Source of the DNA: Thermovirgaceae bacterium
Lineage (GTDB): Bacteria; Synergistota; Synergistia; Synergistales; Thermovirgaceae
Reading direction: 5' to 3'
Assembly (NCBI GenBank): GCA_040767805.1
Contig: JAXGNU010000006.1
Coordinates: 61,621 to 125,620, forward strand
DNA: 64,000 nucleotides
How positions within the stretch are numbered: position 1 is the first letter of the stretch; each line of letters opens with the position of its first letter. Below the pieces are notes generated by a model. The model searched no databases and was not told the DNA's origin. It saw nothing but the letters and a program-made list of their open reading frames with translations. Made by a program: the position numbers and the translations under genes. Of this stretch, positions 8,425-12,073 are shown piece by piece.

Positions 8425-9816
8425 ATGAAGTACGATGTGATCATAGTGGGGGCCGGGCCTTCGGGGCTCTTCGCCGCCCGGGAACTGGCGGCGGCGGGCA
8501 AAAAGGTGGCGATCCTGGACAAGGGGAAGGGCATAGAGGACAGGCATTGCCCCCTGAAGGAGGGAAAAAGCGACACCTGCGTCCACTGCAAGCCCTGCAA
8601 CGTCACCTCCGGTTGGGGCGGGGCCGGTTCCTTCAGCGACGGTAAGCTGACCCTCACCCCCGAGTTCGGCGGCAACCTGGAGCAGTACGTCGGCCGGGGG
8701 GAGCTGGTGGAACTCATAAACGTCGTGGACGGCATCTTCGTGAAGCACGGCGCCAGCCGGAAGGTTTTCTCCCCCGACCCGGTCTTCGCGAGGGACCTGA
8801 CCACGAGGGCCAACACCGTGGGCCTCAGGATCATCCCCGCCCGGATAAGGCACATGGGGACGGACCGGTCCAAGGAGATCCTCCAAAGCATGTACCTGGA
8901 GATATCGCCCACCTGCGACATCATGATGGAGACCCCGGCCGATTCCGTCGTGGTCAGGGACGGCAGGGCCGCGGGGGTGAGGCTCGCCGACGGGAGCGTG
9001 CTGGAGGCGGGGGCGGTGCTCCTTGCGCCGGGCCGCGAGGGTTCCCCCTGGATGGAAAGGACCGTCGCCTCCCTGGGGCTGGAGATTAAGTCCCTGCCGG
9101 TGGATATCGGGGTCAGGGTGGAGATCCCCGCGGGGATAGCCGAGGCCGTCACGGACCAGTTCTACGAGGTCAAGGCGATCCTGGACACTCCCACCTTCGA
9201 CGACCAGGTCAGGACCTTCTGCATGTGCCCCTACGGCGAGGTCACCACGGAGTACATGGAGCAGCACGATATCCTGACCGTGAACGGCCACAGCAACCGC
9301 GGCGGCGACGGGCGCACGGGCAACACCAACTTCGCCATCCTGGTGAGCACCGATTTCACCGAACCCTTCAAGGACCCCAACGGGTACGGCAGCCACATTG
9401 CCAGGCTGGCCAACATGCTGGGGGGCGGTGTCCTGGTCCAGCGCCTGGGCGACCTCAAGCAGGGGCGGCGGTCCACACCCGGCCGGATAGCCAGGGGCCT
9501 GGTGGAGCCCACGCTGAAGACCGCCGAGCCCGGCGACCTGTCCTTCGTCCTGCCCTACAGGCACCTCAAGGGGATACTGGAGATGATCCAGGCCCTGGAC
9601 ATGATCATGCCGGGTATCAACGGCAAGCACACCCTTCTCTACGGCGTGGAGGTGAAGTTCTACAGCCTGAAGCTCGCCTTGGGCAGCGACCTGATGACCA
9701 GCGTGCCGGGGCTCTTCGCCTCCGGCGACGGCGCCGGCGTGACCAGGGGGGTCATCCAGGCCTCGGCCAGCGGCATCGTGGCCGCGAGAGGAATATTAAA
9801 GGACCTTGGAACATGA
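8425..9816 (+). CDS. FAD-dependent oxidoreductase
   Basis: GAGPSG Rossmann motif, GWGGAGSFSDGKL, VRTFCMCP, GDGAGVTRG. Confidence 0.88.
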   Translation: MKYDVIIVGAGPSGLFAARELAAAGKKVAILDKGKGIEDRHCPLKEGKSDTCVHCKPCNVTSGWGGAGSFSDGKLTLTPEFGGNLEQYVGRGELVELINVVDGIFVKHGASRKVFSPDPVFARDLTTRANTVGLRIIPARIRHMGTDRSKEILQSMYLEISPTCDIMMETPADSVVVRDGRAAGVRLADGSVLEAGAVLLAPGREGSPWMERTVASLGLEIKSLPVDIGVRVEIPAGIAEAVTDQFYEVKAILDTPTFDDQVRTFCMCPYGEVTTEYMEQHDILTVNGHSNRGGDGRTGNTNFAILVSTDFTEPFKDPNGYGSHIARLANMLGGGVLVQRLGDLKQGRRSTPGRIARGLVEPTLKTAEPGDLSFVLPYRHLKGILEMIQALDMIMPGINGKHTLLYGVEVKFYSLKLALGSDLMTSVPGLFASGDGAGVTRGVIQASASGIVAARGILKDLGT

Positions 9817-9833
9817 ATCGGGAATCGCAAATC
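9812..9833 (+). repeat. Degenerate heptamer tandem repeat (CGTGAAT-type)
   Basis: catgaat cgggaat cgcaaat; inverted relative to the array at 9985. Confidence 0.65.
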
Positions 9834-9984
9834 GGAAAACCTCCCGCGAGTTCATCGCGGGGTAAACGATAGAACACGGCAAAGGATGGAACCTAAGCCC
9901 CAAGCATGCATCGAAGATGAAGTTCTTCAGATCGTCTTGGAAACAATCCTTAATTTCTTGTTTCAAGCCTGGTGTTTTGGGAAC

Positions 9985-9998
9985 CACGATTCACGACT
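9985..9998. repeat. Heptamer array (CACGATT-type), left part; IS110 target site
   Basis: cacgatt cacgaCT joins in register to tacgatt cacgatt tacg at 11307 when the IS is removed. Confidence 0.85.
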
Positions 9999-10014
9999 CG
10001 TATATTCTTTCGTC

Positions 10015-10200
10015 GGTTCTAAAATGAACCCTGTAAGGCAGTAGGTTTCGGGACGGCGAAGACCGATTTACGACTGAGGCCCTAGAGCCTGTTCGTAAGA
10101 TAGGTCTAGTCGTTCCCACCGAGAACGGACGGTATGCTTGGGGCCCGGTAAGCCCGCATTTACGAGGCCGTTCCCTGGGAACAATGCCGTCCCGACAAAC
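10015..10200 (+). ncRNA. IS110 bridge RNA (approximate ends)
   Basis: Guides match target and donor: 10064-10075, 10093-10099, 10128-10135, 10161-10166; perfect closing stem 10048-10057/10186-10195. Confidence 0.88.
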
Positions 10201-10234
10201 CAACTGTAGCATTTCCTACGGGGGTGTTGAAGCT

Positions 10235-11251
10235 ATGAACCAATGTTTTGTCGGGATCGACGTCAGCAAGAAGCAGATCCATGTCTGTGTCCTTGGCGAA
10301 AAGCCCCATCCCTACCCGAACTGCCTCACCGGGTTCCGGAAGATGATGAAAAGCCTCAGGGAGAAGAAACCCCATGGCGAAGAGACCTTCTTCCTCATAG
10401 GGATGGAGGCCACCGGTGTCTACCACCTCAAGCTCGCCACCTTCCTGAAGGACGAGCCCGATGTGGCCGTTTACGTCCTGAACCCCGCCCAGGTGAAGAG
10501 CTTCTTCAAGGCCTCCTTCCACAGGACCAAGACGGACGCCATAGACGCCTGCGGCATAGCTTCGTGCACGGAGTTCCTGGTCAAAAGGGACAAGGTCCGT
10601 GCCTTCGAGACCCCCGACAACGAGGTCGAACGGCTCAGGCAGCTCTGCCGCCGCCGGGAGGAGATCCTCTCCATGGTCCAGATGGAGAAAAACAGGATCG
10701 AAGCCTTGAAGGAGGTACCATCCCACTCCGGGGAAGTGGAAAGCTCCCTCCTGGAGCACCTGGAGTACCTGGAGCAGCGCCTTAAGGATATCGAAGAGAA
10801 GATCAAAGGACACATACGGAACTCACCGGGACTCAAAGAGCAGGTGGACCTCCTCAAGTCGATACCGGGCATTTCCGATACCGCTGCCGCCGGACTCATC
10901 AGCGAGATTCGCTGCGCCGAGCGGTTCGACAATGTCAAGGAGCTGGTCGCCTTCGCGGGATTAGCGCCGGCGGAAAGGACCTCCGGTACCTCCGTGAAGG
11001 GCAGGACCTGCATCTGCAAAACTGGTTCGTCCAGGCTGAGGAAGCACCTCTACATGCCCGCCCTGGTCGGCATAAGATACAACCCCCTGCTGAAAGAGTT
11101 CTACGAAAGACTGACGAACCGCAACAAGCCCAAGAAAGCCGCTCTCATAGCCTGCATGCGCAAACTGCTTCACATAATCTACGGGGTCCTGAAGAACAGA
11201 ACCGCCTTTGACCCCCTTTGGGCGAAGAACAGGTTCGCCATGGCCTGTTGA
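10235..11251 (+). CDS. IS110 recombinase/transposase
   Basis: DEDD motif GIDVSK, MEATG, KTDAIDA; catalytic-Ser motif RTSGTS; SIPGI; ACMRKLL. Confidence 0.95.
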   Translation: MNQCFVGIDVSKKQIHVCVLGEKPHPYPNCLTGFRKMMKSLREKKPHGEETFFLIGMEATGVYHLKLATFLKDEPDVAVYVLNPAQVKSFFKASFHRTKTDAIDACGIASCTEFLVKRDKVRAFETPDNEVERLRQLCRRREEILSMVQMEKNRIEALKEVPSHSGEVESSLLEHLEYLEQRLKDIEEKIKGHIRNSPGLKEQVDLLKSIPGISDTAAAGLISEIRCAERFDNVKELVAFAGLAPAERTSGTSVKGRTCICKTGSSRLRKHLYMPALVGIRYNPLLKEFYERLTNRNKPKKAALIACMRKLLHIIYGVLKNRTAFDPLWAKNRFAMAC

Positions 11252-11306
11252 AACAGATCGGCTTATGAGGGTTCATTATTTTCAAGGTTGACGGAAGACG
11301 GTATCT

Positions 11307-11324
11307 TACGATTCACGATTTACG
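11307..11324. repeat. Heptamer array, right part
   Basis: tacgatt cacgatt tacg. Confidence 0.8.
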
Positions 11325-11341
11325 CACAGGGAGGTCAGATC

Positions 11342-12073
11342 ATGAAAACCATTGGACTGATAGGCGGGCTGACCTGGGAATCCACCATCGAGTACTACCG
11401 CATCATCAACGAGGAGGTCGCCCGGAGGCTCGGCGGCGTTCACTCCGCCAGGATCCTGATGCACAGCTTCGACTTCCAGGACATCGACACCCTCATGCTG
11501 GCGGGTCGCTGGGAGGAGGTCGGGGCCAAGGCGGCCGAAGCCGGCCTTGGACTTGAAAGCCTCGGCGCCGACTTCCTGCTGATCTGCTCCAACACTATCC
11601 ACAAGGTGGCCGAGGTCGTCTCGGAGACGGTATCGGTCCCCCTGATCCACCTGGCCGACGTGACGGCCGAGGCCGTCAAGGAAAAGGGCGTTTGCAAGGT
11701 GGGCCTCCTGGGGACAATCTTCACCATGGAACACGACTTCTACAAGGGGCGGCTGGCCCAAAAGCACGGCCTGGAGGTCCTGATCCCGGAAAAGGAGGAC
11801 AGGGCCTTCGTGAGCAGGGTCATCGACGAGGAGCTCACCCTGGGCGAACTGAAGGAGGCTTCGAGGGCCCGCTTCCTGGGGATCATCGATGACCTGGCCC
11901 GCCGGGGCGCCGGGGGGGTCATCCTGGGCTGCACCGAGATCCCCCTGCTGGTGAAGCAACCTGACACGGCCGTCACCCTTTTCGACACGACGCGCCTGCA
12001 CTCCCTGGCGGCCGTCGAGGAGGCCCTCAAGGAGGACTGCCAGGTGCCTGACGACGGCGAGGAGAATCCTTGA
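11342..12073 (+). CDS. Asp/Glu racemase family amino-acid racemase (YgeA/RacX-like)
   Basis: IGLIGGLTWEST, CSNT, ILGCTEIP two-Cys motifs. Confidence 0.92.
   Translation: MKTIGLIGGLTWESTIEYYRIINEEVARRLGGVHSARILMHSFDFQDIDTLMLAGRWEEVGAKAAEAGLGLESLGADFLLICSNTIHKVAEVVSETVSVPLIHLADVTAEAVKEKGVCKVGLLGTIFTMEHDFYKGRLAQKHGLEVLIPEKEDRAFVSRVIDEELTLGELKEASRARFLGIIDDLARRGAGGVILGCTEIPLLVKQPDTAVTLFDTTRLHSLAAVEEALKEDCQVPDDGEENP

Follow-up and report, generated by a model that had tools for sequence, protein, structure and literature searches.

What directs an insertion sequence to one short repeated motif, and is the address written in the element itself? The question is raised by a stretch of 64,000 nucleotides from a Thermovirgaceae bacterium (GenBank assembly GCA_040767805.1, contig JAXGNU010000006.1, positions 61,621 to 125,620 of the forward strand), which we call the window and whose positions are counted here from its first letter. 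On its plus strand the window carries, at 9999-11304, an insertion sequence of the IS110 group whose left end encodes a predicted bridge RNA, with one loop fitted to the target and another to the element's own ends. A sequence-only reading had proposed that this is the bridge architecture of IS621, with an intact, programmable recombinase. Our analysis makes it highly probable that the insertion sequence at 9999-11304 is autonomous, belongs to the IS110 group and works in the manner of IS621, with the decisive support coming from its other copies and its relatives. Transcription of the RNA, circle formation, the chemistry of strand exchange and programmability would be expected by analogy with the work on IS621.

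The insertion sequence, its boundaries and its copies

The body of the element measures 1306 bp between two CT cores (9997-9998 on the left and 11305-11306 on the right), or 1308 bp when one core is counted. The window's own assembly (G000; 29 contigs, 80.6% complete) contains three matches to it, two full copies and one right-end fragment. The second full copy (C4:41060-42369, positions 1501-2810 of locus L002) is 100% identical across all 1310 bases, and both full copies occupy the motif ACGATTCACGA-CT-TACGATT; the C4 copy is flanked by ...CTTACGATTCACGA-CT and CT-TACGATTAACG, so that 11 left and 7 right flank bases are common to it and the window copy. In place of a target duplication, CT is shared by both junctions of both full copies. 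An empty site was found in contigs (Logan) of the public runs X15, X17, X4 and X8, which were compared with 9800-11500; 20 of the 24 listed public runs contain the stretch, six of these being recorded as RNA. A 118-letter contig of X17 joins 9996 to 11305 and skips 1308 positions, with a shorter side of 36 letters and an ambiguity of two letters at the joint, and a second contig holds a variant empty allele. Taken together, the empty-site joint and the identical copies settle the boundaries as 9999-11304 plus one CT. Contigs of X4 show the C4 flank and two further, different right flanks, and variant copies of the element in other runs have the same flanks as the window copy. Copies with other ends or unrelated targets had been named beforehand as what would speak against a guided element; in the event, both ends and target motif proved to be shared by the other copies. 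Insertion is site-specific at two, possibly three, places, and the element is intact and recently mobile.

The third match (C2:126000-126330, locus L003) consists of the last 331 bp only. Its left edge is element position 980 (window 10976) and adjoins ...CGATTCACGATTCACG; its right flank, TACGGTTTACGG, begins with TACGG. The junction at 10976 recurs in an X4 contig, and the truncated copy is therefore no artefact of a single assembly.

Within the body, a non-coding left end (LE; 9999-10234, 236 nt), which encodes the bridge RNA, precedes the recombinase gene (10235-11251), and a right end (RE; 11252-11304) of 53 nt holds an outward-facing candidate -35 hexamer, TTGACG, and the left donor arm ACGGTAT (11298-11304). 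An LE far longer than the RE is a trait of the IS110 group. Inspection of the ends CGTATATT and GACGGTAT shows neither to be an inverted copy of the other, no tool search for terminal inverted repeats having been made.

The recombinase

The gene encodes 338 amino acids that comprise a DEDD RuvC-like domain, a coiled coil and a Tnp domain. The Pfam families DEDD_Tnp_IS110 (PF01548; 2.1e-25) and Transposase_20 (PF02371; 1.4e-24) are both matched above their curated cut-offs, and phmmer searches against the PDB return the transposases of ISCro4 and IS621. The five catalytic residues D9, E58, D101, D104 and S250 align identically with D11, E60, D102, D105 and S241 of IS621, as numbered in PMC11208158. 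The proposal of an intact IS110 recombinase orthologue thus stands, and that it is programmable would be expected from its family.

A likely ribosome-binding site, GGGGGTG (10220-10226), lies 9-15 nt before 10235, and there is an upstream in-frame ATG at 10184. Since homology to relatives runs from residue 5 of the 338-residue form, 10235 is the likely start, and translation probably does not begin at ATG 10184. Clustering at 90% places the protein in a group of 60 member sequences; one cluster lies at 86%, and the next relatives are only 47% identical. Within the host phylum, 17 of 268 genomes (the window's own counted) contain a match at E <=1e-20, the best five being 40-49% identical.

A predicted bridge RNA in the left end

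The LE is predicted to form a structured RNA, and its fold beats those of all 200 shuffles (z = -4.32). A predicted 5' stem-loop, GGTTC-TAAAAT-GAACC (10015-10030), is followed by two modules, which are enclosed, as had been noticed from the letters, by a perfect 10-bp outer stem whose 5' strand (10048-10057, TCGGGACGGC) pairs with a 3' strand (10186-10195) that overlaps the in-frame ATG at 10184. The target-binding loop module (10060-10107) has a basal stem (10060-10064 with 10103-10107) and an apical stem-loop (10077-10090). The donor-binding loop module (10112-10182) has an outer stem (10112-10118 with 10176-10182), an inner stem (10123-10128 with 10168-10173) and an apical stem at about 10139-10156. 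Both guide pairs sit on the two strands of the internal loop between basal and apical stems, and the folds thereby bear out the stem-internal placement first described.

In the target module, the left target guide (LTG; 10067-10075) reads UUUACGA-CU, the sequence of the left target flank (LT) plus core, and is predicted to pair with the bottom strand; it fits LT at 7/7 plus the core, one U.G wobble included. The match extends back to 10064, where 10064-10075 (CGATTTACGACT) agrees with flank and core at 9987-9998 (CGATTCACGACT) in 11 of 12 positions, the difference being an RNA U opposite a bottom-strand G. The 12-base, G.U-compatible match reported by the sequence-only reading is therefore real, but only nine of its bases make up the canonical LTG, C10064 belonging to the basal stem and G10065-A10066 to the linker. 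The right target guide (RTG; 10093-10099), UCGUA-AG, complements core plus TACGA on the top strand, and TCGTAAG is, as claimed, the exact reverse complement of CTTACGA at 11305-11311. Next to it lies the target-loop handshake guide AU (10100-10101), which complements AT of GGTAT, the last two donor bases before the core, with both bases paired. The AGAT that follows on the RTG is unchanged in 6/6 lineage members, and AGAU complements AT-CT, that is, core plus handshake.

In the donor module, the left donor guide (LDG; 10128-10135), GACGGUAU in the RNA, is identical at 8/8 positions to the last 8 nt of the element (11297-11304, GACGGTAT). The right donor guide (RDG; 10158-10166), AUUUACG-AG, complements CT-CGTATAT at 8/9 positions, six of them contiguous; the pairing of TACGAG (10161-10166) with CTCGTA (9997-10002) held when checked, and the 9-nt form complements CTCGTATAT at 8/9. 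A donor-loop handshake guide, GC (10167-10168), is assigned by the position rule from IS621.

Chance was assessed with 20,000 dinucleotide-preserving shuffles of 10010-10234, wobble being allowed. An LTG run of at least 12 occurred in 25 shuffles and an LDG run of at least 9 in 366; for an RTG run of at least 7 the count was 2755, and for an RDG run of at least 6 it was 7845. All four guides jointly (at least 8, 6, 7 and 6) were reached in 24 shuffles, a count for which order and loop placement were not demanded. The short guides are weak when taken singly. The four-guide set is unlikely to be a product of chance, and it is the element's other copies and its relatives that lend the decisive support.

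A variant of the element in X15 and X17 contigs, with 16-20 differences, carries A>G at 10070 in the LTG and at 10097 in the RTG. Both changes keep a wobble fit to the same target, and the changed right guide would be perfect for CT-CACGA units. The pair was considered as a guide change of note and set aside, since two of 16-20 differences within about 30 guide bases are not significant.

The RNA and its guides across relatives

When aligned with the window, the leaders of five relatives from the phylum have a common two-module layout, in which the target module consists of a basal stem, an 11-nt 5' loop strand, a 4-bp apical stem-loop and a 3' loop strand of about 12 nt, and a second, larger module is built alike. 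RNAalifold places 31 pairs in the six lineage members, 12 of them with a compensatory change. A covariance model built from this lineage (R1; 123 positions, 25 pairs) matches 73 places, 39 in 96 loci and 34 in 82 sources. Without exception they lie on the recombinase strand, and those inspected end a few tens of bases 5' of the open reading frame (ORF); the single match in the 64-kb window is in the LE. Among 33 distinct model-aligned rows of the second set, 86.4% of cells are paired and 24/25 pairs change on both sides, a count that favors the structure because the alignment was fitted to the model; the pairing and covariation score of this set is reached by 0/500 shuffles and by no slid control. 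The compensatory changes support the predicted two-loop structure. R1 reaches many proteobacterial IS110 left ends; its matches to three enterobacterial loci are weak (E 0.12-0.2), with the best match at the expected place. Outer stems of different sequence are seen, by eye only, at the same place in L113, L086, L087 and L088.

The guides were read at a set distance from the apical stems, which could be done for 61 of the 73 RNAs; the 12 without anchor columns were excluded. To find the boundaries of each element, the LDG alone was used on the right and the RDG alone on the left. A left boundary was accepted when it lay 25-80 nt upstream of the model start (62 nt in the window), as it did for 37/61; the other 24, with a distance outside this range or no RDG match, were dropped from the LT count. 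Of 32 distinct LTGs, 22 pair 7/7 with their own left flank, and the LTG mean is 6.375 as against 3.53 for permuted flanks, a value that none of 10,000 permutations reaches. The RTG mean is 4.53 of 6 as against 2.62 (again 0/10,000; 32 distinct RTGs, 54 loci). The guide columns of the RNA, in short, covary with each element's own flanks.

Individual relatives show what such changes look like. The sibling L113, a metagenome contig whose element is 86-87% identical, has the LTG GUUCACGU-CU and the RTG UGCGUG-AG and lies between TTTCCGT-CT and CT-CACGTC. Compared with the window, position 7 of its LTG has changed from A to U and the flank from A to T, and its RTG has changed from A to G and the flank from T to C. 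Between L086 and L087 a single LTG base differs (GCG versus GUG), and the flanks differ likewise. The donor side is quieter: the donor end ACGGTAT-CT and the LDG are almost invariant across relatives, and the RDG reads UACG-AG with CT-CGTA in this lineage, most relatives having UACA-AG with CT-TGTA.

The site predicted by the guides of L113, TCACGT-CT-CACGCA, occurs exactly 7 nt downstream in its right flank, one repeat unit off.

Proposed mechanism and alternative readings

A working cycle can be proposed on the model of IS621. The right and left ends of the excised circle would join across one CT, and this RE-LE junction would rebuild a sigma-70-type promoter, reading TTGACG (11288-11293), 17 nt and TATTCT (10003-10008), an arrangement that had been pointed out for the joined ends and does arise there as sequence. 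With a 15-nt spacer the -10 would be TATATT; the candidate -10 boxes, TATATT (10001-10006) and TATTCT, together span 10001-10008. Candidate -35 partners are the RE after circularisation or TTGGGA of the left flank (9977-9982, 18-nt spacer), and TTGAC stands 11 to 13 nt before the donor end in 6/6 lineage members with the RE in hand. From this promoter a bridge RNA of about 180 nt (about 10015-10195) would be transcribed, and the recombinase gene, which lies further downstream, would be expressed as well. The target loop would carry UUUACGA-CU and UCGUA-AG, and the joined ends of the element itself, ACGGTAT-CT-CGTATAT, would be bound by the donor loop through (G)ACGGUAU and AUUUACG-AG. Strand exchange at the CT core, carried out by a tetramer of the DEDD/Tnp recombinase, would then place the circle at one of the rare CTTACGA units of a dispersed heptamer tandem repeat and leave no target duplication besides the shared CT.

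In the integrated state, a promoter-like sequence (TTGGGA, 18 nt, TATATT; 9/12) spans the left flank and the start of the element at 9977-10006. It could give low-level expression without excision at the window locus.

Several observations weigh against an element that works like IS621. The LDG is followed by GC and not by the CT core, which leaves the core unpaired on that strand; at the two core positions C is first in 4/6 lineage members and U is second in 0/6, and in the passages on IS621 its LDG pairs over 8 nt where the present one has no core pairing at all. The donor loop described by the sequence-only reading is thus matched in its identity to the right end and lacks pairing with the core. 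In the donor-loop handshake with target GA, C pairs with G (position 6) and G10167 stands opposite A (LT position 7). The IS621 architecture proposed for the locus is found in its two modules, guides, core and ends, with this one handshake position mismatched. The LTG can pair with the RTG (6 bp, -5.8 kcal/mol), and for this reason the minimum-free-energy fold closes the target loop. Guide matches of 6 and 7 nt are common in shuffles when taken singly, and the site of L113 has two mismatches to its own LTG. Neither a transcript nor a go-back (circle) joint is seen in the contigs of the four runs, which cannot show transcription, RNA ends or rare junctions, and contigs from RNA libraries may be DNA. 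In Rfam 15 no family matches 9500-11800 at E up to 1.

Contig depth in X15 (51.8 over the element, 3-7 on the flank) was discarded as a sign of expression, because the element is present in several copies and DNA may occur in RNA libraries.

An alternative, which we hold to be improbable, is that this is a bridge-RNA element whose copies in G000 are crippled relics that move inefficiently, the donor core pairing having been lost and the handshake mismatched. The GC after the LDG, the G10167 mismatch and the lack of a circle joint in the contigs are what such relics would show, and one of the three copies is truncated. Against decay, however, the two full copies are 100% identical across 1310 bp, other samples contain an empty site as well as additional insertion sites, and the ORF and the catalytic residues are intact. 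The second core base is unpaired from the LDG in all six lineage members, and, according to passages in PMC11208160 and PMC11208158, IS621 itself has an LDG that pairs over no more than 8 nt and is active with a wild-type handshake that is imperfect.

Far less probable is that the LE is mainly a cis-regulatory leader, for translation control or as an antisense target, and that its matches to flanks and ends are incidental, the target repeat resembling a hairpin arm. The outer stem does cover the in-frame ATG, there is a hairpin close to the ribosome-binding site, shuffles often produce short matches, and the LTG pairs with the RTG. A leader, however, gives no account of the same alignment columns following unrelated flanks (22/32 LTGs at 7/7, with 0/10,000 permutations reaching the mean), of the compensatory guide and flank changes in L113, or of a donor guide and donor end that have changed together in this lineage. 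That the element belongs to the IS1111 group, with its guide (seekRNA) in the right end, is hardly credible, for the shared protein superfamily is offset by an RE of only 53 nt beside an LE of 236 nt, when the RE is the longer end in IS1111 as described in the passages on that group, and by an RNA model that matches the LE alone. An autonomous element guided as IS621 is remains the reading that we prefer.

The target repeat and other landing sites

The left target flank (9987-9996, CGATTCACGA), of which the last 7 nt, TTCACGA, are the canonical LT, lies within a heptamer array, and the right target flank (11307-11325) consists of TACGA, the right target (RT), followed by the heptamer units TTCACGA TTTACGC. 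In G000 there are 22 arrays of at least three NNNACGR heptamers, the commonest units being TTCACGA (36) and TTTACGA (23). With six unrelated cores as controls, 0-6 arrays were obtained; a CGT control gave 20, which we take to be the same arrays on the other strand. The element requires the CT-bearing unit CTTACGA, rare among the heptamers, placed 3' of a TT(C/T)ACGA unit. One unoccupied site is perfect for the LTG without wobble, TTTACGA-CT-TACGA on the minus strand at C4:40903-40916, which is 144 bp from the C4 copy and in inverted orientation; five further sites in G000 have two mismatches to the guide.

The arrays are 3-9 units long (for example C7:4568-4630 and C6:41408-41470; in the window, 9985-9998 and 11307-11325), and near those inspected there is often a second array in inverted orientation about 100-200 bp off. 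The C4 copy lies inside a 23S-5S rRNA spacer and is oriented against the rRNA genes: these are on the minus strand of L002, where the large-subunit rRNA has its 3' end at 2856 and the 5S gene occupies 1208-1323. Of the 1532 nt of this spacer, 1308 are the element and the remainder is largely heptamer arrays, and 5S-23S co-transcription would have to pass antisense through the element. The left edge of the truncated C2 copy abuts a heptamer array (...TTCACGATTCACG followed by AGGACC). We considered this truncation as a core-centered bridge event, since the bottom-strand junction GGTC-CT-CGTGAA fits the RDG with one wobble, and rejected it because the second half-site resembles neither donor nor target. 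The element of L087 (G251:C4) occupies a different repeat (...CTCTGTGTCCCCTGTGGTGAAAAAGG...), with at least three occurrences within 4 kb, whose uninterrupted copies have CC in place of the CT found at the insertion junctions.

The self-pairing of LTG and RTG has a simple source in such targets, since in short direct repeats LT and RT are copies of each other. Among 56 distinct loops ranked by guide self-pairing, the window is 6th, L113 1st, L085 4th, L086 2nd and L087 7th. It is conceivable, though rather doubtful, that this lineage has specialised on short tandem direct repeats, the heptamer array here and another repeat in L086 and L087, and that the closed target loop serves as a gate opened only by the recombinase or by a matching target; if true, it would offer a natural system in which to study bridge recombinases with repeated targets and self-pairing guides. 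A periodic target also makes slips of register possible: L113 is one heptamer off, and the truncated copy ends inside an array. For the biology of the host, the element is an example of site-specific insertion in which a dispersed heptamer repeat, including the site in the 23S-5S spacer, is used as a safe landing pad. Our literature search found nothing that joins bridge RNA, IS110 and heptamer and, among the papers listed and judged by title, nothing on an IS110 insertion sequence in a 23S-5S spacer.

Comparison with known systems

Bridge recombinases are under development as programmable tools for DNA insertion, excision and inversion, and an orthologue whose ends, core, target and four guides can all be read is a ready candidate for testing. 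The present one has a long natural RTG of 7 nt and belongs to an uncultured lineage of anaerobic digesters. It is distant from IS621, its nearest relatives apart from the sibling being 47% identical. The known mechanism is left unchanged by it. Judged by the protein searches, the element is a new member of the known IS110/IS621 system with no new mechanism, and since passages of PMC11208160 predict thousands of bridge-RNA IS110 orthologues, it may already be among them.

Set beside IS621 of E. coli, as described in passages of Durrant et al. 2024 (PMC11208160) and Hiraizumi et al. 2024 (PMC11208158), the element has the same DEDD RuvC-like domain, coiled coil and Tnp domain with a catalytic serine, the same CT core, and the same long LE and short RE. 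It also resembles IS621 in its LE-encoded RNA of about 180 nt with 5' stem-loop, target loop and donor loop (here predicted), in loops whose 5' strand reads the bottom strand and whose 3' strand reads the top strand, in an LTG of 9 nt, core included, a discontiguous RDG and a handshake dinucleotide directly 3' of the RTG, in a promoter rebuilt across the RE-LE junction (here predicted from the hexamers), and in its choice of a dispersed intergenic repeat. It differs in protein sequence, the IS621 transposase being matched only at a phmmer E of 2.5e-41 over residues 5-327, and in an RTG of 7 nt instead of 4 nt and a target module of 48 nt instead of 65 nt. Both modules are enclosed here by the 10-bp outer stem, whereas the IS621 passages describe no such stem, and the target is a heptamer tandem repeat here and a repetitive extragenic palindromic (REP) sequence there. 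The best match among solved structures is the ISCro4 transposase (PDB 9t56; 1.5e-42, residues 5-327), a comparison of the protein alone. With the IS1111 group the element has in common the recombinase superfamily and the logic of RNA guidance; the long RE that is the longer end and bears the guide (seekRNA), and the subterminal inverted repeats, which passages on that group describe, are not seen here.

Conserved intergenic repeats are targeted by other members of the family as well. ISPpu9 of Pseudomonas putida, an IS110-family element, reportedly has such a repeat as its target. For ISPpu10 of the same species, also of the IS110 family, a preprint describes insertion into many copies of one conserved intergenic repeat and a target stem-loop that acts as a second specificity determinant (bioRxiv 10.64898/2026.03.19.712850), whereas the target units here are direct repeats, with inverted arrays about 100-200 bp away. 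IS621 and the ISPpu elements have the habit of targeting REP sequences, and the element at this locus does likewise with a different repeat.

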